Part shown: piece by piece, positions 2,427 to 44,908 of the stretch
Position numbering within the stretch: the first letter of the stretch is position 1
How the letters are laid out: each line of letters begins with the position of its first letter
Origin: Candidatus Peribacteria bacterium
GTDB lineage: Bacteria > Patescibacteriota > Gracilibacteria > Peribacterales > Peribacteraceae
NCBI GenBank assembly: GCA_009691305.1
Contig: SICS01000002.1
Location: 1-45,038, forward strand
Direction of reading: 5' to 3'
Length of the DNA: 45,038 bases
Translations under genes and position numbers: made by a program
Notes under the pieces: generated by a model
The model's database searches: none
The model's input: the letters and a program-made list of their open reading frames with translations, nothing else
Told to the model about the DNA's origin: nothing

Positions 2427-2519
2427 GGGTGAAGTCTACGCCTCCTCCAAACGCTTTCCCTTCTATACAGCCCTATTTCTGGACGAGGCGCGTTTGTGGT
2501 GATAGAAGTATCCATCCCC

Positions 2520-6064: not shown

Positions 6065-6076
6065 AACTCGGCAGTT

Positions 6077-6125
6077 AGGAGCGCGCGTTCGGCGCGCGTG
6101 ATCACGCAGGCCGAACGCCTGCTCC
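6077..6125 (+). repeat. 49-bp nested palindromic element, copy 1
   Basis: AGGAGCGCGCGTTCGGCGCGCGTGATCACGCAGGCCGAACGCCTGCTCC. Identical to 8340-8388. Outer arms GGAGC..GCGTTCGGC / GCCGAACGC..GCTCC surround the perfect palindrome GCGTGATCACGC. Confidence 0.85.
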
Positions 6126-6216
6126 CAATTTCTGCTGTATCAAGGGCACTCCGACGCTGGACAACCTTTCACTTTCTGGTCTTAATCGCTGCGATCCCTG
6201 CTACCATGCGCGCCGC

Positions 6217-8329: not shown

Positions 8330-8339
8330 TAGAGCAATC

Positions 8340-8388
8340 AGGAGCGCGCGTTCGGCGCGCGTGATCACGCAGGCCGAACGCCTGCTCC
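8340..8388 (+). repeat. 49-bp nested palindromic element, copy 2
   Basis: 49/49 identical to 6077-6125, same orientation. Sits between the small ORF and the MBOAT gene. Confidence 0.85.
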
Positions 8389-8434
8389 TAAGCAATAGTT
8401 TGATATACTTCAGCTCTCGTGTTCGCACGGCCCT

Positions 8435-16904: not shown

Positions 16905-18270
16905 TCTTTTCCAGTTCGCCGTCCTCTTCATCACGCTGTACCTGGGCATGCAGTTGCTGTTCGGTGTGTTCTTCCCGTCGCAAAACCAGCCGCAACAGAC
17001 GGCGGGCCCGCGCCTGACTGCGAGCTCCAGTTTCATGATCGGGAACCACCCCATCGTCACGCTCGAAAACAGGCCGAGTGGCTCACAGTCTTTTGGCGTC
17101 GGTGGATGGGTGCAATCGAAGTGGTGCTCTGCTCAGAGGTTCTTTACGGGGATGCCCACTGCCCATGAATGCGCAGCGAAAGCGGTCGCCTACACTGGTA
17201 CGCCACTCACTCTGGAAAACCGCTGCCCACAGCCATCATTTGATGTCTTCACCGTGCAGGATGCCGGCGCGCCGGGAGAGAAGGTCACCCCCGTCACCTC
17301 CGCCGACCTCGCCGTTCCGTGCGACCCCATCGCCACATTCGGTCCCGGCGAGAGTATCCCCATCAGCCTCGCACCGTGGAAGTATTCGCTGTTCGAAAAA
17401 GTTGGCGTCTACGAAGTGCGCATCCCGGGCGCGGCCGTCGCCACATCTGGATCCGGCGCAGCAGTCGCCTCCGCGACCAGCGTGCGTTTCGCGATCGCCG
17501 AGCCGGGTATTTTCACGAAGGTTTTCCGCACGTTCATCTCCGCGCCGTTCCTCAACTTCCTCATCTTCATCGCATCGCACTCGCCCGGCTACAACCTGGG
17601 AATCGCCATCATTTTACTGACACTCGCGGTGAAAATTTTGCTCTTCTTCCCCACCCAGCACGCACTCGAAGGACAGAAGAAAATGCAGATGCTGCAGCCA
17701 AAAATTGCGGCCCTCAAATCCAAGTACGGTGACGATGCCAAGCGCATCCAGGAGGAGACCATGAAGCTCTGGAAGGAGCACAAGATCAACCCGTTCCAGA
17801 GTTGTCTGCCCATGGTCATCCAGTTTCCGGTTCTCATCGGGCTCTTCTACGTGATCCGCGACGGCAGCAACCTCGCGCTCTCGCACCACCTCATCTACGG
17901 GCCCTACCAAAATCTCTCGTGGCACTTCGGCACAAACTTCCTTGGCCTCGATCTCCTCACGCCCAATATTATTGTCATGCCTGCTCTTCTGGTCGCGATG
18001 CAGTTCTTCCAGATGAAGCTCACATTCAGCATCCAGAAGCGGAAAAAGGATAAGCAAGATGTCATTGATGTTGCCGCTGACGGTAAGCCTGTAAAAGAAG
18101 CCGCGTCGCCCGAAGACCTCCAGCAGAAGATGATGCTCTACGGATTACCGTTGATGATCGGATTCTTCGCACTCCAATTCCCCGCGGCTGTCGCGGTCTA
18201 CTGGGGCGTTTCTACACTCTTCGCTATTGGGCAGCAGGTGATTGTGAATCGAGAGCATTTGCGTGTGTAA
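16879..18270 (+). CDS. yidC: membrane protein insertase YidC
   Basis: Conserved core LLTLAVKILLFFPTQHALEGQKKMQMLQPKIAALKSKYGDDAKRIQEETMKLWKEHKINPFQSCLPMVIQFPVLIGLFYV. ATG 16879 chosen (MPEALKRNNLF...); it overlaps the rnpA end. Confidence 0.9.
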   Translation: MPEALKRNNLFQFAVLFITLYLGMQLLFGVFFPSQNQPQQTAGPRLTASSSFMIGNHPIVTLENRPSGSQSFGVGGWVQSKWCSAQRFFTGMPTAHECAAKAVAYTGTPLTLENRCPQPSFDVFTVQDAGAPGEKVTPVTSADLAVPCDPIATFGPGESIPISLAPWKYSLFEKVGVYEVRIPGAAVATSGSGAAVASATSVRFAIAEPGIFTKVFRTFISAPFLNFLIFIASHSPGYNLGIAIILLTLAVKILLFFPTQHALEGQKKMQMLQPKIAALKSKYGDDAKRIQEETMKLWKEHKINPFQSCLPMVIQFPVLIGLFYVIRDGSNLALSHHLIYGPYQNLSWHFGTNFLGLDLLTPNIIVMPALLVAMQFFQMKLTFSIQKRKKDKQDVIDVAADGKPVKEAASPEDLQQKMMLYGLPLMIGFFALQFPAAVAVYWGVSTLFAIGQQVIVNREHLRV

Positions 18271-18284
18271 AACCGGATTGCGGA

Positions 18285-18686
18285 TTACGAATTTCGGAAG
18301 CTTGGTCGGGCAGAAAGATATCGAATAAAGCCGCCAATCATACGCCCCAGTTTTTCTGTCAGCTCCTTGAGCTTTCGGAATGTTTCTTGATCAATGTATT
18401 GCTCATCTAGCGCATCATAAAGTTGTGCACGAACTTCGCCCGCAGATCGTTTTGCATATCCGAGAAATTGAATGAATTCAGGGTTTGTTTGTGCTTCAGC
18501 ACCTTCAGCTACGTTGTACATAATAGATCGTGCAGCACGTGTGATTTGATCAATGAATGTAAAATCTTTACGCACGTTTGGATGCCTGCAGATGGAACGC
18601 ACTTCGCGTACCAACAGCCTGGCTTCTTGCCAAATTTCCATGTCCTCGAACTTGTGAGAAGGCGTCATGAGCCCATTGTGAAGCAT
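18285..18686 (-). CDS. four-helix-bundle protein (23S rRNA intervening-sequence protein family, TIGR02436/PF05635; Avd-like)
   Basis: FEDMEIWQEARLLVREV ... QITRAARSIMYNVAEGAEAQTNPEFIQFLGYAKRSAGEVRAQLYDA matches the family pattern. The last codons (RPSFRNS) are encoded by the heptamer array. Alternative start at ATG 18668. Confidence 0.85.
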   Translation of the reverse strand: MLHNGLMTPSHKFEDMEIWQEARLLVREVRSICRHPNVRKDFTFIDQITRAARSIMYNVAEGAEAQTNPEFIQFLGYAKRSAGEVRAQLYDALDEQYIDQETFRKLKELTEKLGRMIGGFIRYLSARPSFRNS

Positions 18687-18764
18687 GAAATTTCATTGAA
18701 TAGTCTCTTAAAAAAGATTCTTGTCCGTGTGCCATATTCTTGGCTATCTGATGTGGTAAATTCA

Positions 18765-18786
18765 GTTCCACTACCCTGTGGAACAT
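18765..18786. promoter_or_regulatory. GTTCCAC-N6-GTGGAAC palindrome upstream of 4HB gene 1
   Basis: GTTCCACTACCCTGTGGAACAT, about 80 nt upstream of the 4HB start. Related 22-mers occur at 34899-34920 and 39199-39220. Confidence 0.55.
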
Positions 18787-18830
18787 CCCGCAATCCGCCA
18801 TCCGAAATCCGCAATCCGCAATTATTCCTT

Positions 18831-27587: not shown

Positions 27588-27614
27588 GCCCCTCTCGAAA
27601 GAGAGGGGCTTTTT
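27588..27614 (+). terminator. rho-independent terminator of the S-layer gene
   Basis: GCCCCTCTC-GAAA-GAGAGGGGC followed by TTTTT. Confidence 0.8.
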
Positions 27615-27616
27615 GG

Positions 27617-27716
27617 TATCTCGATACGTTCGTGGCTCCGCCACGAACTACTCGATATGACAGGTGCTGTCATCCCGAGTAGCCCGCAGCGGAGCTGCGG
27701 GCGTAACGAGGGATCA
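27617..27716. repeat. REP-like elements, inverted doublet (copies 2 and 3; REPIN-like)
   Basis: Reverse copy at 27617-27662 and forward copy at 27668-27716 (TGTCATCCCGAGTAGC-CCGCAGC-GGA-GCTGCGG-GCGTAACGAGGGATCA), head to head. The FemAB-type gene stop (TCA 27714-27716 on plus) lies in the last 3 nt of the forward copy. Confidence 0.75.
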
Positions 27717-28712
27717 TCCCAGGAGTTTTCTCTTCATTCGAAGCAGAGTTTTTGTGACGGGACGCAGAATGATTTCCTGCTCCGGGGGATACGTGATGAC
27801 CGAGCCGCCGAACTTGGCTTTGAATTCGCTGACGCTGGCCCAGGGGTGTTTTTTTAGTGGAGACGGCGACGTCTCCGCTTGGGGGGCGATGCCGAACAGG
27901 TCGTAGGAGGTGCAGCCGTGGGATCGGCAATACTTTATGGCTTCCCACTGCAGTAAATACGGAGCCATGAGCTCCCTGTGGGCGTTGGAGGAGGCGCCAT
28001 AGTAATACGTGGCCTGCGTGCCCCAGACGACGCCCAGGAGCCCTGCCACATGCGTCTTTTGGGCGGTCATGGCCAGCATCAGGAAGCTGCCGGGCAAACC
28101 CCTCAGGAAGTGCTCGTAGAAGGCTGCCTTGTGGCCGCGGAAGCTGTCCCTGCGTGCCGTCTCTTCTCCTAGGCGGGCATAGGCCTCGGTGTCATCCGAT
28201 TGCTCGACATCGATACCATGTTTTTCGGCCAGCCGGATGTTATAGCGGCCCTTGGGTTTCATTTGGGCGAGCAGTGCCTCATCATTCAGTGTTAGATCAA
28301 GAATCCGAGTCGCTTCAGGCATGACGAATCGGCCTGAGTTGCGAATTTCGGATTTCGGATTTCGGAAAGGTAGATGTGGTGAAAAATGAATAGTGAGAGC
28401 GCCATTCTCTTTTGCATCTGCAATGATTCTTTCTATAAAATCCGTAATCCGTAATCCGTAATCCGTAATCATAAGCGGTCCGCGCGGTATCTCCCACGTA
28501 CTCAGTCCAAGACTCGTCCTATCAATCACCACGAGAGCGGAGGCCATGATCTGCTCAGCATCCATCTGCGCATAAATCCGCACCTCGCGCTGAAGAGCTT
28601 TCTGAAATTGGCTCCATTCCAGCGACTGCCACAATGAACCTTCGGGGTGCGTCTTGATCCACTGATCATAGGCATGCAAATCCTCCGGCGATGTAAGGCA
28701 ACGAATATCCAT
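27714..28712 (-). CDS. FemAB-family peptidoglycan interpeptide-bridge (aminoacyl-tRNA-dependent) transferase
   Basis: [81 protein letters not shown] are family hallmarks. Confidence 0.85.
28342..28470. repeat. inverted CGGATTN heptamer arrays inside the FemAB-type coding sequence, read through in frame
   Basis: Plus strand CGAATTT-CGGATTT-CGGATTT-CGGAAAG (28342-28369). Minus strand CGGATTA x3 plus CGGATTT (28438-28465). Translated as [11 protein letters not shown] and [10 protein letters not shown] in the track protein. Confidence 0.8.
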
Positions 28713-31032: not shown

Positions 31033-31086
31033 TTCTTGAAAAATGAAACAGAGCCGAAGTATAGACAGTCACGCTCGCGTGTAAAG

Positions 31087-31193
31087 TCCCTCGTTACGAA
31101 ATCTGCTCCGCAGCTTTCTACTCGGGATGACATTTCGACTTGAATGTCATTCCGAGTAGCTCGCGGGGGATCCGCGAGCGTAACGAGGAATCA
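31087..31193. repeat. REP-like elements, inverted doublet (copies 4 and 5; REPIN-like)
   Basis: Reverse copy at 31087-31132 and forward copy at 31145-31193 (TGTCATTCCGAGTAGC-TCGCGGG-GGA-TCCGCGA-GCGTAACGAGGAATCA). The stop of the DHS-like gene (31191-31193) is the terminal TCA of the forward copy. Confidence 0.75.
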
Positions 31194-32367: not shown

Positions 32368-33231
32368 ATGTCCAAAAAAGTCACTATCGGCCTCGTACAG
32401 ATGTCCATGGAACATCATCCAGCCGGTAATCTGGAGTATGCCATCGAGATGGTCGCCAAAGCGGCGGACAAAGGCGCGCAGATCGTGTGTCTGCCTGAGC
32501 TCTTCCAGAGCCCGTACTTCTGCCAGAAGAAGGATGACAAAAGCGCATTCGATCTCGCAGAGCCAATCCCCGGCCCTGCAACTAAAGCGCTTTCCGAAGC
32601 GGCAAAGAAGCACAAGATCGTCCTCGTCGGTGGATCGATCTTCGAGAAGACAAAAGAGGGGACGTACTACAACACCACGCCGGTCTTCGATACCGACGGC
32701 TCGCTCCTCGGAACCTATAGGAAGACGCATATTCCCGAAGACATCCTCTATCACGAAAAACAGTACTTCAGTCCCGGCGATACCGGCATCAAGGTCTTCA
32801 AAACGAAATATGGGAAGATCTGCCCGCTGATCTGCTATGACCAGTGGTTTCCGGAAGCCGCGCGCCTCGCCACGCTCCAGGGTGCCGAGATCCTCATTTA
32901 CCCCACCGCGATCGGTGTCATCGATTCCGCAGTCGAAGAGAACATCACGGGAGACTGGGAGCAGATGTGGCGGAACGTGATGCTCGGGCATGCGGCGGCG
33001 AACAACGTCTACGTGTGCGGCCTCAATCGGGTGGGCACCGAAGGCGCCATCACCTTCTGGGGCGGCTCCTTTATAGCGGCGCCGAGCAGCGAGGTCCTCG
33101 CGAAGGCGGGTAATAAGGAGGAGATCATCCTGGCGGTATGTGATCTTGACCGGGTGAAGGCGATACAGGAGGCTTGGATGTTTTTGAAGAATAGGAGACC
33201 GGAGGTTTATGACGGACTTACGAAGCACTAA
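32368..33231 (+). CDS. aguB: N-carbamoylputrescine amidase (carbon-nitrogen hydrolase family)
   Basis: Nitrilase-superfamily Glu/Lys/Cys blocks (IVCLPELF, YRKTHIP, ICYDQWFPE). Adjacent to agmatine deiminase. Confidence 0.85.
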   Translation: MSKKVTIGLVQMSMEHHPAGNLEYAIEMVAKAADKGAQIVCLPELFQSPYFCQKKDDKSAFDLAEPIPGPATKALSEAAKKHKIVLVGGSIFEKTKEGTYYNTTPVFDTDGSLLGTYRKTHIPEDILYHEKQYFSPGDTGIKVFKTKYGKICPLICYDQWFPEAARLATLQGAEILIYPTAIGVIDSAVEENITGDWEQMWRNVMLGHAAANNVYVCGLNRVGTEGAITFWGGSFIAAPSSEVLAKAGNKEEIILAVCDLDRVKAIQEAWMFLKNRRPEVYDGLTKH

Positions 33232-33316
33232 GCACTAAACTCTAAGCCCTAAACAATATCTCAATTCCCAATGAAAAAAATTGTTTAGGATTTAGTACTT
33301 AGGATTTAGAATTTCG
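33221..33316. repeat. gene-less hairpin made of inverted heptamer arrays (CTAANNN units)
   Basis: Left arm CGAAGCA-CTAAGCA-CTAAACT-CTAAGCC-CTAAACA (33221-33255), 26-nt loop. Right arm on minus CGAAATT-CTAAATC-CTAAGTA-CTAAATC-CTAAACA (33282-33316). The aguB stop lies in the left arm. Confidence 0.8.
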
Positions 33317-34420: not shown

Positions 34421-34801
34421 TTAGGTGAGGGGTTGAGGTTGAGGTGTGTAGTATTTTTGGATGATGGAATGGAAAATAAGTTTCAAACTTCGAGCTTCTT
34501 TCAGGAGCGATAGTCGCTCTTGCTCAAGAGCTGGTTCAAGTCTCATATCAAACATGTCTAACCAGAACATGGATTCCTTTGCCTCCTTCCGGGAAATTTT
34601 CAGATGGTATGCACAATCTTTCTTTGTGAACGCTTCGTTGGCCTCAATATAGTTAGCACCGACAGAACCTGATGATCGAAGGAGCTGTTTTGCGTCATCA
34701 GAGTAGGCAAGTTGCTTCGGCAATTGATGGAGCCACCGGCGGATGTTTTTGCCAAAGTCAGCAGTCCTTTCGGCCAGATCCTGTCTTTCAGCATTCGTCA
34801 T
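34421..34801 (-). CDS. four-helix-bundle protein (23S rRNA intervening-sequence protein family; Avd-like)
   Basis: QLLRSSGSVGANYIEANEAFTKKDCAYHLKISRKEAKESMFWLDMF matches the family pattern. The C-terminal TPQPQPLT is encoded by the flanking repeat array. Confidence 0.8.
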   Translation of the reverse strand: MTNAERQDLAERTADFGKNIRRWLHQLPKQLAYSDDAKQLLRSSGSVGANYIEANEAFTKKDCAYHLKISRKEAKESMFWLDMFDMRLEPALEQERLSLLKEARSLKLIFHSIIQKYYTPQPQPLT

Positions 34802-34898
34802 GCCATTACCATATGTGACTTACAGATGGCGGAAACGCAGTTAGAAATAGAAAAAATGATCGTGCCTAACTTTTTATCTAATGTAAGCCAAAAAATCA

Positions 34899-34920
34899 GT
34901 TCCACACCCCCATGGAACAT
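34899..34920. promoter_or_regulatory. palindrome GTTCCACACCCCCATGGAACAT upstream of 4HB gene 2
   Basis: Identical 22-mer at 39199-39220. About 100 nt upstream of the 4HB start. The adjacent block 34869-34890 is 19/22 identical (inverted) to 39228-39249. Confidence 0.6.
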
Positions 34921-34997: not shown

Positions 34998-35025
34998 TTG
35001 ACCTCCACCCGGATCTCTTTACAAT
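34998..35025 (+). promoter_or_regulatory. candidate sigma-70 promoter for rpoB (TTGACC-N16-TACAAT)
   Basis: TTGACC at 34998-35003 and TACAAT at 35020-35025, about 110 nt upstream of the rpoB ORF. Confidence 0.4.
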
Positions 35026-35135
35026 CTCCCCGTTATCTCGCAGTGGCTTCGATTGTGTTGTGAGTGCTGCGTCCCGGTTCTGTCATGCGTCGTCATGCGA
35101 CGGTGCGTGGCCACTCCTTTTTCCCTCCTTATTGT

Positions 35136-38100
35136 ATGGCGAAGAAAGCGAAGAAGTCCCTCAAAAAATCCAAGCCCGCAAAAGCGGTGAAGAAGGTTGT
35201 CAAAAAGGTCGCCCCCAAAAAGGTAGTGCCGAAGGCCGCCATCAAGGCTGCAGCCCCCGCCGCACGGCCAGGATCGAAATTTCAATTAAAAAAAGGAGGG
35301 GGAAAGCCGGTGGAGCAGCAGGACATCCTGAGGCCGCTCAAGAAGTTGAACGTCCCGAAGAAGCCCTACCAGATGCATGTAGATGAAGAGGTGGTGCCGC
35401 ATGTGCACCCGCACGTGATTCCGCCCGCGGGACGCACGCCTGCGGTCTTCGCGCGGTTGCCGGACTTGCCACAGCCCAAGAAAATTGAAATGGGGCGCGT
35501 GTTGTTGGTTGAACAAGACGATCACTCGCACGTGCCATCACTCATTGAAATGCAGATCCTCAGCTACAAGTGGTTCCTGACCGAAGGCCTCAAGGAACTA
35601 CTGGAAGAGATCACGCCGATCACGGACTTCTCGGGCAAAAAGCTCGAGCTCCGCATCCTCGGCCACACCTTCGACGTTCCCAAGTACGACCCCGAGACCT
35701 GCAAGCGCCGCAACCTCAGCTACGAAGGTGCCATGAAGGGTTACGTCCAGCTGATCAACCGCGAAACGGGTGAAATCAAGGAGCAGGACGTATTCCTAGG
35801 CTCCATCCCGCTGATGACCGATTCCGGCACATTCGTCGTGGACGGCATCGAGCGCGTGGTCGTCCACCAATTGGTCCGCTCCCCGGGCGTGTTCTTTAGC
35901 AAGATGCCCGACCACCCCAAGTACCATGCCGCCAAGATCATCCCGAAGCGCGGCGTGTGGCTGGAAATCGAGACGGACCGCCGCGGCATCATCAGCTGCA
36001 AGATCGACCGCAAGCGCAAGATCCCCATCACGCAGCTGCTCCGCGTCTTCGGCTACGCCGGCGATGGCCAGATCCTCGACCTCTTTAAGGACATCACGAA
36101 CCCCGACCACGATTACATCCTCACGACCCTCGAGAAAGATCCGGTCCGCACGGTCGAAGAGGCGTACCAGAGCGTCTACCGCAAGATCCGCCCCGGTGAC
36201 CTTGCGACGCCCGAAAACGCCAAGCAGCTGATCGATTCCCTCTTCTTCGACTTCAAGAAGTACGACATGGGCTCCATCGCCCGCTACAAACTGAACCGCC
36301 GCTTCAACCTCAAGACGCCAAGCGACGAAGCACACCGCGTCTTCCAGGTCAGCGACTTCCTTGAGATCCTCCGCGAACTCGTCCGCCTCAACAACGGCGT
36401 CGGTGTGGCCGATGATATCGACCACCTCAGCAATCGCCGCGTCCGCTCCGTCGGCGAACTTGTGCAGAACAAGTATCGCGTGGGCCTCGTCCGCACCGAG
36501 CGCATTGTCAAGGATCGCATGACCGTGATGGACATCGAGACCGTCACCCCCACCCAGCTCATCAACTGTCGCCCGATCACGGCCGCGATGCGCGAATTCT
36601 TCGCGAGTTCGCAGCTCTCTCAGTTCATGGACCAGACGAACCCGCTGGCCGAACTCGCCCACAAGCGCCGCCTCTCGGCGATGGGTCCCGGAGGACTCTC
36701 CCGCGAGCGCGCGAGCTTCGACGTCCGCGACGTGCACACCAGCCACTACGGCCGTATCTGTCCGATCGCGACTCCTGAAGGTCCGAACATCGGTCTCGTC
36801 GTCCACTTGGCAGGGTTTGCCCGCGTGAACGAATACGGATTTCTCGAGACCCCGTATCGCGAGGTGAAACACACGATTCCGCTCGATCCCGACAGGCTTC
36901 TCGGCCGCATCCTGGACGTCACAGTAAAGGAGAGCCGCAAGGTGGTCGCCAAGGAAGGTGAGGTGATCGATAAGAAGGATTTGGCACGCAAAATCGTCTC
37001 GATCCTCAAGAAGGAAGGCGCCAAGGACATCGCCGTGCGCGCCTACATCACGAGCAAAGTCATCTACGTCGACGCCGAGCAGGAGCGCCACCTCACGATC
37101 GCCCAGGCTGAAACGCACACCAGCGAGTTCGACGAATTCATGACGACCCGCGTTTCCTCCCGCAAAGCAGGGGAGCCGCTGCTCGCCCATGTCCGCGACA
37201 TCACGCACGTCGACGTTTCGCCCCGCCAGATCCTCTCGATTTCCACCTCTCTCATCCCATTCCTGGAGCACGATGACAACACCCGCGCATCCATGGGCAC
37301 GAACATGCAACGCCAAGCCGTCCCGCTGATCAAGCCGCACTCGCCGCTCGTCGGCACCGGTATCGAAGGCCTCGCCGCCCGCGCATCGGGCCACGCGCTC
37401 CTTGCCGAAGAGGACGGTGAAGTTACCGCCGTCGATTCGCGCGAAGTCTCCGTCGTCTACAGCTCGGGAAAGAAGCGCACCCACAAGCTCCACACATTCG
37501 TTCGCAGCAACCAGGGCACGTGTTTCCACATGCGTCCTCGCGTGTTGCGCGGCCAGAAAGTCCGCCGTGGCGAACCGCTCGCTGATGGCGCGTCTGTTGA
37601 GGACGGCGAATTGGCACTCGGGCAGAACCTACTTGTCGCCTACATGTCGTGGGAAGGCTACAACTTCGAAGATGCTGTCATCATCAGCGACCGCGTCGTG
37701 GAGGAAGGGTTCTTCGACTCCGTCCATATCGAGTCCTACATCACAGACGTGCGCGATACCAAACTCGGACCAGAAATCGTCACGCGCGACATCCCGAACG
37801 TCGGCGAAGCAAAACTCAAGGATCTCGGCACCGACGGTGTCGTCCGCATTGGTGCGACCGTCCACGAAGGCGACATCCTGGTCGGCAAGATCACGCCGAA
37901 AGGGGAGACCGAACTCACCCCTGAGGAACGCCTTCTGCAAGCCATCTTCGGCGACAAGGCGAAGGATGTGAAAGATTCGTCCCTGCGTCTCCCCGGCGGT
38001 GCTGGCGGAAAGGTGGTCGACGTCCACATCTTCGACCGCGCGGAGGGCGACGAACTGCCTACGGGCGTCATCAAGCAGATCAAAGTCTTCGTCGCACAGA

Positions 38101-39065
38101 CCCGCAAGATCCAGGTGGGTGACAAGATGGCCGGCCGCCACGGGAACAAAGGCGTCGTGTCACGCGTCGTCCCGCGCGAGGACATGCCGTTCCTCGCGGA
38201 CGGCACACACGTCGATATCATCCTGAACCCGCTCGGTGTCACCTCCCGCATGAACATCGGACAGATCCTCGAGACCCACTTGGGTTGGGCATGCAAAGAG
38301 CTCGGCATCAAGATCGCGACGCCGCCGCTCAACGGGATCTCCCCCGAACAGATCGATGAATTCCTGAAGCAGGCAAAACTTCCCAAGTCCGGGAAGATCC
38401 AGCTCTTCGATGGTCGCACCGGCGAACCGTTCAAGTACGAGACGACCGTCGGGCAGGTGTACATGCTCAAACTTCTCCACCTTGTCGAAGATAAGATCCA
38501 CGCTCGCTCTGTCGGACCGTACTCGCTTGTCACCCAGCAGCCGCTCGGAGGCAAGGCGCAGCACGGAGGACAGCGCTTCGGGGAAATGGAAGTGTGGGCG
38601 CTCGAGGCCTACGGCGCCGCATACACGCTGCAGGAAATGCTCACGATCAAGTCCGATGACGTCATCGGCCGCAGCAAAGCGTACGAGGCGATCGTCAAGG
38701 GCGAACCGATCCGCCGTCCGTCCATTCCGGAATCCTTCAACGTCTTGGTGAAAGAACTCCAAGCGCTGGGTCTCAAAGTCGAACTGCTCAAGTTCAAGGA
38801 GGAAGTCGCTCCCGAGGAACGCGTGACGGTCGACGAAGGCGTCATCGAACCGGTCGAGCTCAGCTCCCGTATCGAGGCGGAAGAAGCCGCCGAAGGCGCG
38901 GTGCCCGAGGCCGACAAGATCGCCGAACTGGAGGAGATCAGCACCGAGCCCATCGAGGAAGTGATCGCCGGCATCGAAGAAGGCGCCGAGGTCGAAGCCT
39001 CCGGCGAAGGGGCCAAACAAGAAATGCAGGATGCCGCGAGTGAGGAAGCGCAGGAAGCGGCGTAA
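35136..39065 (+). CDS. rpoB: DNA-directed RNA polymerase subunit beta, with Lys-rich N-terminal and acidic C-terminal extensions
   Basis: Canonical RpoB blocks (SLIEMQILSYKWFL, RMNIGQILETHLGW, GGQRFGEMEVWALEAYGAAYTLQEMLTIKSDD). In-frame N-terminal MAKKAKKSLKKSKPAKAVKKVVKKVAPKK... and about 88 acidic C-terminal residues. Alternative core start at ATG 35490. Confidence 0.95.
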   Translation: MAKKAKKSLKKSKPAKAVKKVVKKVAPKKVVPKAAIKAAAPAARPGSKFQLKKGGGKPVEQQDILRPLKKLNVPKKPYQMHVDEEVVPHVHPHVIPPAGRTPAVFARLPDLPQPKKIEMGRVLLVEQDDHSHVPSLIEMQILSYKWFLTEGLKELLEEITPITDFSGKKLELRILGHTFDVPKYDPETCKRRNLSYEGAMKGYVQLINRETGEIKEQDVFLGSIPLMTDSGTFVVDGIERVVVHQLVRSPGVFFSKMPDHPKYHAAKIIPKRGVWLEIETDRRGIISCKIDRKRKIPITQLLRVFGYAGDGQILDLFKDITNPDHDYILTTLEKDPVRTVEEAYQSVYRKIRPGDLATPENAKQLIDSLFFDFKKYDMGSIARYKLNRRFNLKTPSDEAHRVFQVSDFLEILRELVRLNNGVGVADDIDHLSNRRVRSVGELVQNKYRVGLVRTERIVKDRMTVMDIETVTPTQLINCRPITAAMREFFASSQLSQFMDQTNPLAELAHKRRLSAMGPGGLSRERASFDVRDVHTSHYGRICPIATPEGPNIGLVVHLAGFARVNEYGFLETPYREVKHTIPLDPDRLLGRILDVTVKESRKVVAKEGEVIDKKDLARKIVSILKKEGAKDIAVRAYITSKVIYVDAEQERHLTIAQAETHTSEFDEFMTTRVSSRKAGEPLLAHVRDITHVDVSPRQILSISTSLIPFLEHDDNTRASMGTNMQRQAVPLIKPHSPLVGTGIEGLAARASGHALLAEEDGEVTAVDSREVSVVYSSGKKRTHKLHTFVRSNQGTCFHMRPRVLRGQKVRRGEPLADGASVEDGELALGQNLLVAYMSWEGYNFEDAVIISDRVVEEGFFDSVHIESYITDVRDTKLGPEIVTRDIPNVGEAKLKDLGTDGVVRIGATVHEGDILVGKITPKGETELTPEERLLQAIFGDKAKDVKDSSLRLPGGAGGKVVDVHIFDRAEGDELPTGVIKQIKVFVAQTRKIQVGDKMAGRHGNKGVVSRVVPREDMPFLADGTHVDIILNPLGVTSRMNIGQILETHLGWACKELGIKIATPPLNGISPEQIDEFLKQAKLPKSGKIQLFDGRTGEPFKYETTVGQVYMLKLLHLVEDKIHARSVGPYSLVTQQPLGGKAQHGGQRFGEMEVWALEAYGAAYTLQEMLTIKSDDVIGRSKAYEAIVKGEPIRRPSIPESFNVLVKELQALGLKVELLKFKEEVAPEERVTVDEGVIEPVELSSRIEAEEAAEGAVPEADKIAELEEISTEPIEEVIAGIEEGAEVEASGEGAKQEMQDAASEEAQEAA

Positions 39066-39075
39066 ACGGAATCTC

Positions 39076-39190
39076 TACCCCCTCCCCCAGCCCCTCCCCC
39101 TGAGGGGAGAGGGGAGTTGGGGTATCTCCACAATTCAACAAGCCCCTTTCTCCCGCGCACGGGGGAAAGGGGTTGGGGATAGGGGGTTTT
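39076..39190. repeat. CCCCNNN / GGGGNNN heptamer-type hairpins after rpoB
   Basis: TACCCCCTCCCCCAGCCCCTCCCCCTGAGGGGAGAGGGGAGTTGGGGTA (39076-39123) and CCCCTTTCTCCCGCGCACGGGGGAAAGGGGTTGGGGATAGGGGG (39143-39186). May also act as the rpoB terminator. Confidence 0.6.
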
Positions 39191-39196
39191 GAGTGG

Positions 39197-39260
39197 ATGT
39201 TCCACACCCCCATGGAACATCCGAACGTGGCTTACATAAGAGTAAAAGTCTCCATCTCAA
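39197..39260 (+). promoter_or_regulatory. cassette-type palindrome plus conserved leader block, oriented toward ssb
   Basis: ATGTTCCACACCCCCATGGAACAT (39197-39220) followed by TGGCTTACATAAGAGTAAAAGT (39228-39249). Both match the region upstream of 4HB gene 2. Confidence 0.55.
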
Positions 39261-39333
39261 AAAGTGATCTTCTCCGACCCCCCTCCCGCGATCAGCCGGG
39301 ACTTTTTACGATGATCGACCGCTCTTTCTCCTC

Positions 39334-39351
39334 GCAGGCAGGTATGCCTGC
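39334..39351. repeat. GCAGGCA-GGTA-TGCCTGC hairpin
   Basis: Member of the short hairpin family also seen at 5041-5062 and 43045-43062. Lies 27 nt upstream of the ssb start. Confidence 0.55.
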
Positions 39352-39377
39352 ACTTCTATTTCTTTCCCCCATTTCTT

Positions 39378-39779
39378 ATGAAATCGGTGAATACTGTCAC
39401 ACTTCTCGGGAACGTCTCGCGCGATCCCGAACTTAAATCCACCCCGACCGGGCAGACCGTCTGCACGTTCGGCCTTGCCACCAACCGCGTCTGGAAGGAC
39501 GCGAATGGCGAGAAGCAGACCCTTCCCGAGTTCCACAACGTTATCGCGTGGGCTGGGCTCGCCGATCTCTGCGGCAAGTACGTCAAAAAAGGGAAGCCCC
39601 TCTACGTGAAGGGCTACCTCAAGACCCACACCTGGGAAGACAACCAGAACAAGATGAAGCACTACATGACGGAGGTCGTCATGCAGGACCTGGTGCTCCT
39701 CGGTTCCAAGTCCGCCGCGAGCGATGCTGCGGAGGAAGTGGAGGACGAGGAAAAAGAGGAAGAGGCTGTCGCTGTGTGA
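39378..39779 (+). CDS. ssb: single-stranded DNA-binding protein
   Basis: OB-fold N-terminus MKSVNTVTLLGNVSRDPELKSTPTGQTVCTFGLATNRVWKD...EFHNVIAWAGLADLCGKYVKKGKPLYVKGYL. Acidic tail ends EEEAVAV rather than the usual DDDIPF-type tip. Confidence 0.92.
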   Translation: MKSVNTVTLLGNVSRDPELKSTPTGQTVCTFGLATNRVWKDANGEKQTLPEFHNVIAWAGLADLCGKYVKKGKPLYVKGYLKTHTWEDNQNKMKHYMTEVVMQDLVLLGSKSAASDAAEEVEDEEKEEEAVAV

Positions 39780-39794
39780 TCAGCTCTGGTAAAA

Positions 39795-39826
39795 AGCCGC
39801 GGGCAGTACTGCTCGTGGCTTTTTTA
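39795..39826 (+). terminator. rho-independent terminator after ssb
   Basis: AGCCGCGGGCAG-TAC-TGCTCGTGGCT (with G-U pairs) followed by TTTTTT. Confidence 0.6.
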
Positions 39827-39981
39827 CATTCATGAAAATTATTCCCCGAACCTTATTTAGGTTCTGCAGAAACTATTCTGCCACCTAAATCAATTAGCAT
39901 CCGTGCGTGCAACTCGTTGATTCCCTGTCCGACTGTTTCATCCAAAATTCTACAGCGTCATTTACGATTGGATCCGGGGCT

Positions 39982-40305
39982 TCATTGCGTCTCTCCATCT
40001 ACCGTCCCCTCAGAGTTCAATAATTCCTCAAGTGCGTTTCTGCATTGATTTGTTAGACCTATGCCAGCGAGAGGATCCTTGTAGAGATCCTCTATGGATA
40101 TCTTTTTTCTTTCCGCGACGTATTGTGCGTGCAGCGCCTCGGCAGTATTCCTCCTTGTGTCATTAAGAGGTAATGCGTCTGCCTTCGTGAGGAGGGCCGC
40201 AATTTTTGCGTGGTCTTCTCGAGACTTGGCATTAATCTCACGCAAAAGCCTGACTTCTGCCGCAAGCTCTTGCTCAGGCCGTATTTTTGGAGAAATCTCA
40301 GTCAT
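39982..40305 (-). CDS. hypothetical protein (107 aa, AT-richer)
   Basis: Clean ORF with helical, charged composition. TTGACA-type -35 and AT-rich -10-like sequence close to the ATG on the minus strand. No family recognised. Confidence 0.4.
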   Translation of the reverse strand: MTEISPKIRPEQELAAEVRLLREINAKSREDHAKIAALLTKADALPLNDTRRNTAEALHAQYVAERKKISIEDLYKDPLAGIGLTNQCRNALEELLNSEGTVDGETQ

Positions 40306-40391: not shown

Positions 40392-40419
40392 TTGACCCCC
40401 CTCCCGCCCCGAGTAAAAT
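40392..40419 (+). promoter_or_regulatory. candidate rRNA promoter (TTGACC-N16-TAAAAT)
   Basis: TTGACC at 40392-40397 and TAAAAT at 40414-40419, about 310 nt upstream of the 23S 5' end. Followed by a leader hairpin ACCCGCAGGAAT...ATTCTGCGGGT. Confidence 0.4.
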
Positions 40420-40724: not shown

Positions 40725-41385
40725 TTTTTGAGAAATGTTACTCATCGCAACACATGGATGCCTCGACTCTGCATTCCGATGAAGGACGTGGCCAGCAACG
40801 ATATGCTTCGGTGAGCCGCTAGGCAGGCGTTACCAGCCGAAGATTTCCGAATGGGGAAACCCCACGAGAGTTCTGTCTCGTGATCCGCTCACGCGGAAGG
40901 TCACTCTGTGAACTGAAACATCTCAGTAACAGAGGAAAAGAAATTAAATTAAAGATTCCCCCAGTAGTGGCGAGCGAACAGGGATCAGCCCAAACCGCGT
41001 ACTTGTACGCGGGGTTGTAGGACCTCGATATGTGATTCCTTCCTTTATAGAAGAACGTCCCTGGAACGGGCGGCCATAGAGGGTGATAGCCCCGTAAGCG
41101 AAATAGAGGAAGACACTAGAGGAATCCTGAGTAGGGTCGGACACGTGAAATCCGGCCTGAATCCGGGTGGACCACCATCCAAGGCTAAACAGATGCAGAG
41201 ATCAATAGCGGATAGTACCGTGAGGGAAAGGTGAAAAGCACCCCGGAAGGGGGATGAAATAGTCTCTGAAATGTGTTGCGTCCAAGGAGTCGGAGCGGAC
41301 TTGTTCCGTCACGACGTTCCTTTTGCATAATGAGCCAACGAGTGTGTTCTCAGTGGCGTGGCTAAGGCAGTTTCCTAGCCGGAGC

Positions 41386-41417
<32 letters not shown>

Positions 41418-41812
41418 TCGCTGGGACACGACCCGAAACCGGGTGAGCTATCCATGAGCAGGTTGAAGCCCGCCGAAAGGCAGGTGGAGGACCGAACCAT
41501 AGCGTATCGCAAGACGTTGGGATGACTTGTGGATAGGAGTGAAAAGCTAATCGAACCCGGAGATAGCTGGTTCTCCTCGAAATGCCTTTAGGGGCAGCCT
41601 CGTCGGGCACGGCGGGGGGTAGAGCGACTGTTTGGATGCGGGAGTCACCTCGACTTACCAAATCCTGACAAACTCCGAATACCCGCCTTTAATGCCGACG
41701 GGAGTGAGACAGTGGCAGCGAATTGCCATTGTCGTAAGGGAAAGAGCCCTTACCATTCGCTAAGGTCCCAAATTATCGTTCAGTGGGAAAGGTGGTGTAT
41801 GTGCATCAACAA

Positions 41813-41843
<31 letters not shown>

Positions 41844-42177
41844 TAAAGAAAGCGTAACAGCTCACTGGTCGACGCACGTATGCGCCGAAAACTCAACGGG
41901 GCTAAACGATAAACCGAAGCGGTGGATCTCCTATGTCCTTCGGGACGTAGGTGGTGGTAGAGGAGCGTTCCGTTCAGCTGTGAAGCAGTGTTGTGAAGCA
42001 TTGTGGAGCGTACGGAAGCGAGACTGTTGGCATGAGTAACTACTAGGCAGGTGAAAACCCTGCCCGCCGAATCCCCAAGGTTTCCCACGCAACGGCAATC
42101 GGCGTGGGGTTAGTCGGTCCTAAGGTCAGGCCGAAAGGCGTAGCCGATGGATAACAGGTCAATATTCCTGTACTTCT

Positions 42178-42345
42178 CGGGAATCGATAAAAGGGCGGTC
42201 GTTGAGAGTTTTACGAGCCTCTGTCTCTACCATTTTGTACATATACATAGACGCAGGTCTTCGACCTGCGGATCGCGCGTCGAAGACGCGCGCTATGTGT
42301 CCAAGATGGTAGAGATATGTTCGCGAAAAAGGATACTTCCGTTCT
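42178..42345 (+). other. ~150-nt insertion / expansion segment in 23S domain III
   Basis: Between CCTGTAC and GTGACGGGATGGGAAG, E. coli and Bacillus have about 25-30 nt and this gene has about 175 nt. It contains stem 42224-42233/42306-42315 enclosing two hairpins (GCAGGTC-TTCG-GACCTGC and GCGCGTC-GAA-GACGCGC). Confidence 0.6.
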
Positions 42346-42801
42346 AGGAGCGGTGTGACGGGATGGGAAGATCGCAGCGTGCGCATTGACTGCACGTGTA
42401 ACACGTAAGACGTTGAGAGTGGTAGGGAAATCCGCCACTTGAGTCGAGCGTGGAATCCAAATGGCTCCCGCGAGGGGGTCGAGTGCGTACCTTTCCGTCT
42501 CCAAGAAAACCATCGCTCACAGAGTTCCGGGAAACCGTACCGCAAACCAACACCGGTGGGGTGGTCGAGTAGACCAAGGCGAACGGGAAAACTCGCGTTA
42601 AGGAACTCGGCAATGAAGCGTCCGTAACTTCGGGATAAGGACTACCAGTCTGTAGTGGATTGGTTGCAACAAAAGAGGTCAGGCGACTGTTTATCAAAAT
42701 CACAGGTCCCTGCTAAGCTGCAAAGCAATGTATAGGGGCTGATGCCTGCCCAGTGTCAGAAGGTCACGTAAGGGGGTTTACGCCTCCGAACTAAGCCCTG
42801 A

Positions 42802-42855
<54 letters not shown>

Positions 42856-43044
42856 GGTCGAATAACCCCGTACCAGTCGCGCTTCGGCGCTCCGGTACAG
42901 GGCATGCTTGCCCGAATGATCAGCAATGATCAGCACTGAGGAATTTTTTCTAGATTTTGATAGTAAGTCTCGCGGTCGAGACCCGCGATGCCCCAAGCGA
43001 AAGCAAAGGGCGATCTCATAATTATTTTTTTGTTGGCGCCGAGC

Positions 43045-43062
43045 GCAGGCATACTTGCCTGC
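43045..43062. repeat. GCAGGCA-TACT-TGCCTGC hairpin inside the intron
   Basis: Exact reverse complement of 5044-5061. Confidence 0.6.
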
Positions 43063-43494
43063 AAAGAGTTAAGGAATCTCTCTAAAAATTCTGATTACAG
43101 ACCGTATTGTGGATACCATTCACCCCACGTCGCTCGCTTCGGCGAGCTATGCGGGGCAAACAGTGTAAAACGTCGCCATATGCTGGAACATCCGAGTATC
43201 CCCTATGCCGTAAGGTACGGGGTGCGGACAATCAGCAGGAAAGAATTTCTTATTTTTCTTCCATTCATTATGACACGTACCAAAGAATCTCCGGCTCTCG
43301 ACGACAAGCAATTGCCGAAGGGAGTAGATGGATACAATCTCGCCTTGATTGAAGCGGCACCTGCTGCCATTTGGCAGTTAGGTTTTGCAGAGATATGCGG
43401 GAATTACCGTCAGGAAATTCAGGAGTGCGGTGCATTCAGTGAATCGGATAATAAGAACTGATCCTCAGAGACTTTACGCGATGCCCGCGACTTG

Positions 43495-43540
43495 TTCCTC
43501 GTTACGCTCGTGACTCTGTCACGAGCTACTCGGAATGACA
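43495..43540 (-). repeat. REP-like element copy 6, in the P8 loop of the intron
   Basis: Minus strand reads TGTCATTCCGAGTAGC-TCGTGAC-AGA-GTCACGA-GCGTAACGAGGAA. Flanked directly by the P8 stem CCGCGAC/GTCGCGG. Confidence 0.75.
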
Positions 43541-43621
43541 GTCGCGGAGATGATAAAGTCCGATCCCTGTGGCGACACAGGGCGCGCGAAATTGAAGCGC
43601 GGCTAAAAAACAATCGTTATG

Positions 43622-43667
43622 TCCCTCGATACGAAAATCGCTCGGCGATTTTCTACTCGGGATGACA
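43622..43667 (-). repeat. REP-like element copy 7, in the 3' peripheral region of the intron
   Basis: Minus strand reads TGTCATCCCGAGTAG-AAAATCGC-CGA-GCGATTTT-CGTATCGAGGGA. Confidence 0.7.
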
Positions 43668-43725
43668 TAGGTGTAAGTGCGCTCCTGCAAGGGAGATCTC
43701 GGTTCACCACCGAGAGGAACGCGCT

Positions 43726-43790
43726 GAATTGAAAATTGATAATTGAAAATGGGAAATTATTTTCCATTTACCATTTTTCATTTTTCATTC
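43726..43790. repeat. AT-rich inverted heptamer-array hairpin near the intron 3' end
   Basis: AATTGAA-AATTGAT-AATTGAA-AATGGGA-AATTATT facing, on the minus strand, AATGAAA-AATGAAA-AATGGTA-AATGGAA. Confidence 0.7.
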
Positions 43791-44361
43791 GCATGTTTAT
43801 GAAGTTCCGACCCGCACGAATGGTATAACGGTCTGATCACTGTCTCGACGCGAGGTCCGGTGAAATTTCAATCCTGGTGCAAATGCCAGGTAGACCACGG
43901 TAGGACGAAAAGACCCTATGAAGCTTTACTGTACGCTGACATTGTTTCGTTGATTTGCGTGCGCAGAATAGGTGGGAGGCTTTGAGGCTCTAGCTTCGGT
44001 TAGGGCGGAGCCAACTTTGAGATACCACCCTCGCGTTTCGCCGAAACTCACCCTGTCTCTGAAACAGAGCGGGGGACAGTGTTTGCCGGGCAGTTTAACT
44101 GGGGCGGTTGCCTCCTAAAGTGTAACGGAGGCGCGCAAAGGTCCACTAGCGCCGGATGGAAATCGGCGTTGTCGTGTAATCGCACAAGTGGGCCTGACTG
44201 TGAGACTTACAGGTCGAGCAGGGACGAAAGTCGGTGATAGTGATCCGGCAGCCGGACAACTTATACTTGTCCTTACCACGTGGGTGGGCTGTCGCTCAAC
44301 GGATAAAAGTTACTCTAGGGATAACAGGCTGATCGGTTCCAAGCGCCCACAGCGACGAACC

Positions 44362-44478
<117 letters not shown>

Positions 44479-44518
44479 TGGCCTCTATCCTCCGTGGTCA
44501 CTTAGAAACGTGAAGAAA

Positions 44519-44551
<33 letters not shown>

Positions 44552-44609
44552 AACCTCTGGTGTACCTGTTGTCGCGTCAGCGGCATTGCAGGGTAGCTAT
44601 GTTTGGACG

Positions 44610-44642
<33 letters not shown>

Positions 44643-44785
44643 CCTTCTGAGATTGCGTTTCTCCATCAGCCCGCCGGAAGACGACCGGCTAGATCGGCCA
44701 CAGATGTACGTGCGGCAACGCATTCAGTCGAGTGGTACGAACGGGCAATTGAACATTTTTCAACCTTAGCCTTTAACAGCTAGGG

Positions 44786-44830: not shown

Positions 44831-44878
44831 TGTCACCCCGAGTAGCTCGTGACGGAGTCACGAGCGTAACGAGGGGCA
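44831..44878 (+). repeat. REP-like element copy 8, in the 23S-5S spacer
   Basis: TGTCACCCCGAGTAGC-TCGTGAC-GGA-GTCACGA-GCGTAACGAGGGGCA. The stem is nearly identical to that of copy 6 but in the opposite orientation. Confidence 0.75.
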
Positions 44879-44908
44879 ATAATTGATTCTTCAAATCATG
44901 AGTGCAGT

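Follow-up and report, generated by a model that had tools for sequence, protein, structure and literature searches.

We show that the ssb gene on a 45,038-nucleotide stretch of a Candidatus Peribacteria genome (positions 1 to 45,038 of contig SICS01000002.1, assembly GCA_009691305.1; this whole stretch is hereafter the window) is preceded by a two-part DNA unit. The unit consists of a 20-bp symmetric site, GTTCY-N10-RGAAC, and, at a fixed distance of 18 bp, an AAGCCA or A-rich element. Its sequence, spacing and orientation are conserved upstream of ssb in Peribacteria, it is restricted to this lineage, and it recurs upstream of both genes for four-helix-bundle proteins in the window. Judged by these features, the unit is probably a lineage-specific two-part operator-promoter of a Peribacteria regulon, of which ssb would be the ancestral member and which the four-helix-bundle genes would share.

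Palindrome and block in the window

An initial annotation, made from the letters of the window alone, had pointed to a 22-mer shared by two places and to a block beside it that resembles the block next to another palindrome. Both similarities are real and beyond chance. The 22-mer, GTTCCACACCCCCATGGAACAT, is found at 34899-34920 and 39199-39220 and nowhere else in the window; 100 dinucleotide-preserving shuffles gave no match. The block at 39228-39249 on the plus strand is identical at 19 of 22 positions to 34869-34890 on the opposite, minus strand, again with no matches in shuffles. The annotation was also right that the module points toward ssb, whose ATG lies at 39378. The features concerned are as follows.

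39197-39220, no strand assigned: IR1 palindrome ATGTTCCA-CACCCCCA-TGGAACAT, core GTTCY-N10-RGAAC at 39199-39218; putative operator at the -35 region
39228-39249, plus strand: second element, the 'leader block' TGGCTTACATAAGAGTAAAAGT; putative -10 region
39378-39779, plus strand: ssb (PF00436, E 8e-31), the gene served by the unit
34897-34920, no strand assigned: second IR1 copy CAGTTCCACACCCCCATGGAACAT, between the divergent IVP2 and rpoB genes
34869-34890, minus strand: second block copy TGGCTTACATTAGATAAAAAGT, directed at IVP2
34421-34801, minus strand: IVP2, four-helix-bundle gene (PF05635, E 1.4e-10) behind the second unit
18735-18784, minus strand: third unit, inside a cassette bounded by heptamer arrays, with an IR1 variant GTTCCACAGGGTAGTGGAAC (18765-18784, minus-strand reading), 18 nt and TAGCCAAGAATA (18735-18746)
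18285-18686, minus strand: IVP1, four-helix-bundle gene (PF05635, E 4e-31), with AATCCGC-type inverted heptamer arrays at 18274-18298 and 18788-18822

The arms of the ssb-side palindrome (39197-39220) form a perfect 8+8 inverted repeat, ATGTTCCA-N8-TGGAACAT, and the left arm reads CAGTTCCA at both of the other copies. The third copy (18763-18786) has a different spacer; this diverged palindrome, GTTCCACTACCCTGTGGAAC at 18765-18784, lies 5' of the other of the two four-helix-bundle genes (18285-18686). At ssb, the block is made up of GGCTT (39229-33), four nucleotides, an AAGAG-type half and an A-rich TAAAAG (39243-48). The 22-mer, with its asymmetric spacer, has the plus orientation at both of its sites and the block lies on opposite sides of it, a relation that the initial annotation had not noticed; the spacer is thus flipped relative to the block and to the gene served.

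Conservation of the unit upstream of ssb

To place the unit in its lineage, we use ssb loci gathered by protein similarity and hence not selected for the motif (loci fetched from relatives carry L-numbers, e.g. L175). The Peribacteria set comprises 20 species, with SSB proteins 56-74% identical. GTTC-N12-GAAC lies 5' of ssb in exact form in 10 of these 20 species and with at most one mismatch in 16, always starting 131-179 nt before the ATG. The 53 other ssb loci, mostly from other members of the candidate phyla radiation (CPR), hold no exact copy and two with one mismatch, which is about the chance level. An intrinsic terminator that follows rpoB stands immediately 5' of the unit in L175 and L181; the unit is therefore located where ssb needs its own promoter. 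This distribution indicates that the unit is ancestral to ssb in the Peribacteria lineage and that, if copying occurred, the four-helix-bundle genes would have received it.

One Peribacteria metagenome-assembled genome, CAZESZ01, has two ssb loci (L177 and L183), encoding SSB proteins 62% and 60% identical to that of the window; the palindrome is present at both, being exact at one of them and carrying a single mismatch at the other.

Four-helix-bundle genes and other genes behind the unit

The two-part unit stands with the same spacing and orientation 5' of both IVP1 and IVP2. Orthologous cassettes between deoC and yidC in L247 and L248 keep a diverged unit (GTTCCATGGGGTCATGGAAC ... GGCTTCACTGAGAGAAAAAG in the former; GTTCTACAGGGCAGTAGAAC, 18 nt and AAGCCAAAAAT in the latter). 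L249, a syntenic 52-kb contig from a more distant relative, has two G/C hairpins, GTTCCACACATCTGCGGAAC, 18 nt and TAGAGCAAAAGT, followed by an IVP2-type gene, which is the arrangement found at the window ssb; the protein encoded is 31% identical to window IVP2 (E 1e-21). The IVP1-type gene of L249 is inverted and has heptamer arrays only. The initial annotation had suggested that one operator serves both ssb and the four-helix-bundle genes, and the core of this suggestion stands, given the same unit at ssb, at both window four-helix-bundle genes and in L247, L248 and L249; the stress or SOS-like regulon that it attached to this operator is weighed below.

As a separate observation, the IVP1-type cassette between yidC and deoC, arrays and gene together, is wholly inverted in L249 (9140-10460) relative to the window (18270-18830), and L249 has the IVP2-type gene inserted beside this inverted cassette.

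The PF05635 family ('23S rRNA intervening-sequence protein') is otherwise known only from two settings, namely rRNA intervening sequences (IVS) and diversity-generating retroelements, where it supplies the accessory protein Avd. In 80 loci of IVP2 relatives from many phyla, (NCGAAAT)n arrays abut the start codon and no GTTCC..GGAAC occurs upstream. The four-helix-bundle genes of the Peribacteria loci L115, L250 and L260 likewise have heptamer arrays and no palindrome. We rejected the palindrome as a general feature of four-helix-bundle cassettes because it is absent from the relatives in other phyla and from L115. The unit is also found 5' of a gene for a ComF-like phosphoribosyltransferase (L172), of a small coiled-coil protein family in three species (L164/L170, L171 and L173) and of several further proteins without family matches.

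Two-part geometry and lineage restriction

Alignment of 29 sites in the direction of the gene shows AAGCCA, allowing one mismatch, in 15 of them. Its position after GAAC is +19 in 13 sites and +20 in the other 2. An AAGAG/AGAG-NAAAA variant occupies the same position in 7 further sites, including the window ssb (TAAGAG-TAAAAG). A T-run and GGCTT usually separate the two parts, and GGCTT forms a small inverted repeat with AAGCC. What the initial annotation had called a leader block is the second part of the unit. Every site except L170 has a gene start 77-200 nt away on the side of the block; the L170 locus ends 238 nt past the palindrome, and its near-identical counterpart L164 shows the gene.

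The exact 22-mer has no match in GTDB genomes. The exact 20-mer GTTCCACACCCCCATGGAAC has five matches in GTDB species genomes (596 Gb; one genome for each of 185,579 species), all in Peribacteria or Peregrinibacteria and each in a different gene neighborhood. It also occurs in six metagenome contigs, of which five have the same non-coding architecture and the sixth resembles a chance match in high-GC coding DNA; by our estimate, about one chance match to a 20-mer is expected in databases this large. Viral contigs hold no exact copy. Since the 20-mer is found clade-wide, the identity of the two window copies reflects a shared consensus site and is not a sign of recent copying. Palindromes occur at a density of about one per 15-20 kb, with only one further copy in four metagenomes, so they do not form the many near-identical copies with unrelated flanks that characterize repetitive extragenic palindromes (REP) or miniature inverted-repeat transposable elements (MITE).

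These results bear on the first of two readings offered by the initial annotation, namely that a four-helix-bundle cassette once stood at ssb and decayed, with its promoter retained as the present copy. In line with that reading, the 19/22 match between the ssb and IVP2 blocks exceeds the match among ssb blocks across species (17/22 against L188 and L190, by eye), the G/C hairpins at ssb are placed where arrays stand in cassettes, and L249 has G/C hairpins, the unit and then an IVP2-type gene. However, the unit is found at ssb in 16 of the 20 species, tblastn with both four-helix-bundle proteins matched only their own loci and no remnant near ssb, the four-helix-bundle genes of other phyla and of L115, L250 and L260 have arrays without the palindrome, and the identity of the 22-mer is that of a clade-wide consensus. 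Because the unit belongs to ssb lineage-wide and no four-helix-bundle coding remnant lies near ssb, we regard descent from a decayed cassette as ruled out, leaving it next to no probability.

A probable site in double-stranded DNA

We favor a palindrome that would be recognized as double-stranded DNA by a protein of two-fold symmetry, rather than one acting as an RNA structure. At position 5/16 of the palindrome, 21 sites have C-G in 7 cases, T-A in 5, T.G in 2 and a non-pairing combination (C.A and similar) in 7, inner positions 6-8 are unpaired in 8-11 of the 21 sites, and covariation is barely above that of shuffles. The palindrome of L175 keeps only 4-bp arms. Moreover, which strand carries the spacer C-run, relative to the gene, varies from site to site, even between orthologous ssb sites (CACCCCCA in the window, CAGGGGTG in L187).

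The same data speak to the possibility of an RNA or single-strand DNA hairpin, serving as a leader stem-loop, a processing site or a terminator. The palindrome does fold as a stem of 8-11 bp in the local minimum-free-energy structure, and a T-run follows the hairpin at many sites. Against this, positions 5-8 are unpaired in 7-11 of the 21 sites with covariation near shuffle level, and the loop occurs on either strand relative to the gene. As for a terminator, the ssb copy is without a T-run, its stem has only 3 G-C pairs among 8, and none was called at 39197-39220. A hairpin function is therefore very unlikely. Searches against Rfam, at gathering thresholds over the whole window and at permissive E-values over 39000-39450, returned only rRNA, tRNA and generic hairpin noise.

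It is even less probable that the palindrome is a recombination or mobile-element site, such as a tyrosine-recombinase core or an attC-like or REP-like element, that moves cassettes. Arms of 6-8 bp around an 8-bp spacer do resemble recombinase core sites, the spacer occurs in both orientations, and the IVP1-type cassette is inverted in L249 compared with the window. However, the position at ssb is stable across species, the copy number is low, four-helix-bundle cassettes elsewhere are without the palindrome, and no recombinase gene lies nearby. In addition, the identical copies are direct repeats flanking rpoB, so that recombination between them would delete an essential gene. Alignment of contigs to the locus revealed neither junctions nor rearrangements at the palindrome: no read pairs or contigs linking the sites, and no variants with the cassette excised or inverted exactly there, were seen.

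We also rejected a resemblance of TGTTCCAC(A) to parS or a DnaA box, which is found only in the close subclade and is lost in distant ssb sites; the half-sites of the palindrome are 6-8 bp apart, which is unlike parS.

A putative operator-promoter

Two canonical promoters lie in the window, and they indicate that recognition by the housekeeping polymerase is ordinary in this organism.

34998-35025, plus strand: rpoB promoter, canonical sigma70-type TTGACC-16-TACAAT, about 80 nt downstream of the second IR1 copy
40392-40419: 23S rRNA promoter, canonical TTGACC-16-TAAAAT, upstream of the 23S rRNA gene

A consensus sigma70 scan of 38900-40000 found no promoter, and the unit is without a TTGACA-like hexamer. 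The right arm in L171, TGGAAC, is separated by exactly 17 nt from a perfect TATAAT that serves the gene on the other side, a distance that places the arm at the -35 position.

The unit has the traits of an operator within a regulon: two-fold symmetry, a constant placement relative to the promoter, conservation before orthologous genes and recurrence before several genes. In the mechanism that we propose, a predicted dimeric DNA-binding regulator would sit on the palindrome, at the usual place of the -35 hexamer. The A-rich end of the block would serve as the -10 region and transcription would begin a few bases further on, giving an ssb leader of about 120 nt; taking this A-rich end as the -10 region would put the center of the palindrome near -41 to -46. 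Since the sites are without a TTGACA-like -35 hexamer, the regulator would probably either recruit polymerase, in the geometry of a class II activator, or occlude the -35 region. The binding of a protein, the point where transcription begins and whether regulation is positive or negative are parts that we infer. The co-regulated set would include ssb, as its oldest and most widely conserved member, together with the four-helix-bundle, ComF-like and small coiled-coil genes.

Several observations weigh against an operator-promoter of this kind. The right half-site GAAC is present in 20 of 21 sites and the left half bears nearly all mismatches, which fits a sigma-factor -35 element. A second -10-like motif, TAYGNT, lies 35-40 nt before the ATG, so that the unit may be distal and not the only promoter, and the datasets containing the window locus are DNA metagenomes only. 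The exact-20-mer loci were chosen by the motif itself, so their sequence identity is ascertained and is not independent evidence. Finally, ssb directly follows rpoB across a short spacer, without the unit, in L179, L182 and L186, L193 is a fourth Peribacteria species without the unit at ssb, and low-GC Peribacteraceae loci (L250-L262) have no unit in 17-20 kb.

The bias between the two arms is also the starting point for reading the unit as the promoter of an alternative sigma factor, with RGAAC as the -35 element, 17-18 nt, (T/A)AAGCC as the -10 element and the GTTC arm as a secondary site or the site of an extra factor. The right arm is nearly invariant with the mismatches in the left arm, and the GAAC-to-AAGCC spacing is a rigid 18 nt, as is typical of -35/-10 pairs. 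GGAAC is the classic -35 core of extracytoplasmic function (ECF) sigma factors. The window itself encodes a sigma70-family protein (2496-3911) with residues in regions 2.4 and 4.2 that differ from those of E. coli RpoD. On the other hand, the left arm GTTC is exact in 10 of the 20 unselected ssb loci, compared with 1/256 by chance, an excess indicating that symmetry matters. Position 5/16 keeps the two-fold symmetry, and we know of no sigma factor that needs such symmetry. The downstream element, moreover, is unlike the CGT-type ECF -10. A sigma-factor promoter, the main rival of the operator reading, is unlikely.

The sigma70-family protein comprises regions 1.2, 2, 3 and 4 and, after them, a C-terminal extension of about 165 amino acids. 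Compared with E. coli RpoD, it differs in 2.4 (FSTYATYWIKRSIRQ) and 4.2 (TMERVRRIQ) at the positions through which the -10 and -35 elements are contacted. Possibly an alternative sigma factor, it is a candidate reader of the unit. Two other promoter types were considered and rejected: only L163 fits the sigma54 pattern TGGNAC-N5-TTGC (-24/-12), by eye, and neither a sigma32-like CCCCAT nor a CGT-type ECF -10 is conserved among the sites.

Within the operator reading, a sub-case would make the palindrome the Peribacteria LexA box and the unit a DNA-damage regulon. In several phyla ssb repeatedly appears among the SOS genes, and the motifs bound by LexA vary widely, often containing GTTC/GAAC tetramers and including large palindromes such as GGTT-N10-AACC (PMC8565304). 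Some CPR genomes encode LexA, with homologues detected by tblastn in L112 and L067. The unit does stand at ssb in 16 of the 20 species. However, its other targets, encoding four-helix-bundle, ComF-like and coiled-coil proteins, are not classical SOS or repair genes, and the ComF-like target hints at DNA uptake instead of SOS. The Gram-positive-type box GAAC-N4-GTTC is absent at the unit sites; it occurs four times in 192 kb of Peribacteria loci, with about three expected by chance (two copies overlap in one long open reading frame, a third is within an HxxEH peptidase motif and the fourth closely precedes a 23S rRNA gene). We found no lexA or recA match in the fetched Peribacteria loci by tblastn with E. 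coli LexA and RecA queries. A protein search with the RecA of L005 returned a Magasanikbacteria-type RecA, which was of no use for Peribacteria. The SOS network of Patescibacteria is reportedly the subject of a 2017 study by Sanchez-Osuna et al., cited in PMC8565304. The initial annotation had noted that the half-sites do not resemble known LexA boxes, and indeed GTTC-N12-GAAC differs from every LexA motif given in PMC8565304. A LexA box appears quite unlikely.

Hairpins between rpoB and the unit

Two G/C-rich hairpins precede the ssb unit.

39082-39116, plus strand: hairpin A, directly 3' of the rpoB stop codon (arms 39082-39096 and 39102-39116)
39143-39172, plus strand: hairpin B (arms 39143-39155 and 39160-39172; 13 nt, 92% complementary)

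Hairpin A has 15-nt arms that are 80% complementary around a 5-nt loop and is present in the minimum-free-energy fold; the 315-nt rpoB-ssb spacer as a whole folds with z = -4.5. Hairpin B is a dispersed repeat (about 39140-39190): contig depth is 47-96 at 39149-39209, compared with about 8 nearby, and several contigs with different flanks point to multi-copy behavior. Its 3' side enters a G-run tract, GGGGG-AAA-GGGG-TT-GGGG-ATA-GGGGG (39161-39186). The initial annotation had described these hairpins as CCCCNNN/GGGGNNN arrays. The two hairpins are there, and their G-runs do recur about every 7 nt, below the threshold of a period-7 scan that found no heptamer array at 39076-39377 and did detect true heptamer arrays elsewhere; the term heptamer array is therefore only loosely right. 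They form local stem-loops, in contrast to the inverted arrays that stand far apart at the cassette boundaries.

The slot between the end of the upstream gene and the unit accumulates stem-loop repeats: 5' of the ssb palindrome it holds a TGTCATCCCGAGTAG... repeat family in L184 and L187, and other G/C hairpins in L165 and L249. We do not think that the G/C hairpins belong to the unit. Their probable role is that of terminators or insulators, acting as separate stem-loops that would end the rpoB transcription unit; one of them is a dispersed repeat.

The four G-runs at 39161-39186 constitute a G-quadruplex-type motif on the plus strand, 10 nt 5' of the palindrome, and C-runs or G-runs also adjoin the palindrome in L163, L165, L166 and L173.

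The ssb leader and other genes of the window

The window comes from a member of the class Peribacteria (Peregrinibacteria, CPR) with a G+C content of about 55%. The gene 5' of ssb is rpoB (35136-39065), which is 73% identical to its most similar match, from a 'Candidatus Peribacteria' genome, and ssb is followed by an intrinsic terminator at 39791-39824, composed of an inverted repeat and a T-run.

39250-39377, plus strand: ssb leader, from an alignment with four relatives

The leader contains a conserved CTCAAAAAGTGATCT (39256-70) and a hairpin GCAGGCAGGTATGCCTGC (39334-51), a terminator-like hairpin at 39284-39301 with a T-run, TACGAT at 39307-12 and a C/U-rich tract before the ATG, without a Shine-Dalgarno sequence. 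The -10-like hexamer TAYGNT lies at its distance of 35-40 nt from the ssb ATG in nearly all Peribacteria species (including loci L175-L192); T1, A2 and T6 are constant where it is found, and its distance to the palindrome unit varies. It possibly marks a second, proximal ssb promoter. As for a candidate regulator beside ssb, the open reading frame at 39982-40305 has no Pfam match and no relative in other ssb loci. A putative second ssb fragment at about 20544 was rejected as a chance match.

Shine-Dalgarno sequences are missing before genes of the window (39360-39377 and 35110-35135), where C/U-rich tracts such as TTTCTTTCCCCCATTTCTT-ATG or TTTTTCCCTCCTTATTGT-ATG precede the start, and likewise in related contigs (L166, L173 and L003). 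Bacterial SSB proteins usually end in D-D-D-I-P-F; the C-terminus encoded here (39735-39779) is an acidic tail, EEVEDEEKEEEAVAV, without that tip. RpoB has a lysine-rich N-terminal extension, and a segment of the rpoB leader at 35043-35075 (CAGTGGCTT-N-GATTGTGT...GAGTGCTG) is common to the closest relative, L003 (5838-5870).

Other repeats in the window

A dispersed repeat consists of TGTCATCCCGAGTAGC, a variable G/C hairpin and CGTAACGAGGGA, and occurs together with its reverse complement, often as adjacent inverted pairs. Its outer arms would pair save for an apparent tandem G.A/A.G mismatch. The copies lie in intergenic spacers, in a 23S rRNA insertion and in the 23S-5S interval.

231-279: dispersed repeat copy
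27611-27716: dispersed repeat copy
31081-31193: dispersed repeat copy
43489-43541: dispersed repeat copy
43616-43668: dispersed repeat copy
44831-44879: dispersed repeat copy
L184 and L187, 5' of ssb: further copies

The 23S rRNA gene (40731-44762) exceeds the 2925-position Rfam model by about 1.1 kb, with insertions placed by eye at about 42180-42340 and 42855-43800; a 5S rRNA gene is also present in the window. The larger insertion contains an open reading frame (42988-43461) without a Pfam match, two copies of the dispersed repeat and a heptamer-array hairpin at 43725-43792.

Heptamer arrays occur in two further settings. Inverted arrays of (CGGATTT)n and (AAATCCGT)n at 28334-28476 lie inside an intact FemAB-family open reading frame (27714-28712) and are translated in frame. 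Between the carbon-nitrogen hydrolase and agmatine deiminase genes, a heptamer-array hairpin at 33218-33314 (CTAAGCA-type arrays and their complement about 30 nt apart) is 'empty', with no four-helix-bundle gene in its loop. In addition, a 58-nt direct repeat that is 95% identical (GCAGTTAGGAGCGCGCGTTCGGCGCGCGTGATCACGCAGGCCGAACGCCTGCTCC...) is found at 6071-6128 and 8334-8391, 5' of a D-Ala-D-Ala carboxypeptidase gene (6217) and of an MBOAT gene (8435), respectively.

Implications

Gene regulation in the CPR is almost uncharted because none of these Peribacteria has been cultured. In this regard, a motif found over about 20 species at ssb with rigid geometry offers a testable handle, both for listing the regulon and as bait for the regulator, and the presence of the unit before PF05635 genes hints, through co-regulation, at what this very common protein family does. 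We propose, tentatively, that GTTCY-N10-RGAAC-N18-AAGCC defines an undescribed Peribacteria regulon coupling ssb, a ComF-like DNA-uptake gene and PF05635 genes. If this were true, PF05635, a family of unknown function, would be tied to the handling of single-stranded DNA, in uptake or in the response to damage, and the unit would be the first transcription signal to be defined in this CPR class, which is uncultured. If the unit is the ordinary operator of a minor regulator, the gain would be a modest one, a new binding motif.

Comparison with known systems

The unit is a new motif of a familiar kind. In layout it parallels class II activator promoters, such as those of CRP and FNR with a site near -41.5, where a symmetric site of about 20 bp likewise takes the place of the -35 hexamer, with a fixed distance to the -10 element. 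The half-sites and the 16-bp center-to-center distance differ from those of CRP/FNR sites, and the placement at -41 to -46 is here a prediction. Like the CIRCE operator of HrcA, TTAGCACTC-N9-GAGTGCTAA, the palindrome is a long inverted repeat with a fixed spacer, found at a small defined set of genes across species. In contrast to CIRCE, its sequence and target genes are different, with no heat-shock genes at the Peribacteria unit, and its spacer is G/C-rich and exact within a subclade, whereas the CIRCE spacer is not conserved.

The unit shares with LexA operators (the Gram-positive GAAC-N4-GTTC, the Geobacter GGTT-N10-AACC and the alphaproteobacterial GTTC-N7-GTTC) a symmetric GTTC/GAAC site, a place upstream of ssb and a lineage-specific sequence. 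It differs from them in the order and spacing of GTTC-N12-GAAC, in the rigid link to a second element 18 nt away and in its non-repair companion genes. ECF promoters (-35 GGAAC, 16-17 nt, CGT-type -10) have a comparable invariant (G)GAAC and a rigid distance, here 17-18 nt, to a second element; that element is AAGCC or A-rich in Peribacteria, and the upstream mirror arm has no ECF counterpart. Finally, two of the three window units lie inside cassettes bounded by inverted heptamer arrays, as in the IVS cassettes of 23S rRNA that carry PF05635 genes. In cassettes from other phyla and from other Peribacteria, by comparison, the arrays reach right up to the start codon and the palindrome is absent; the window ssb copy stands without a cassette.

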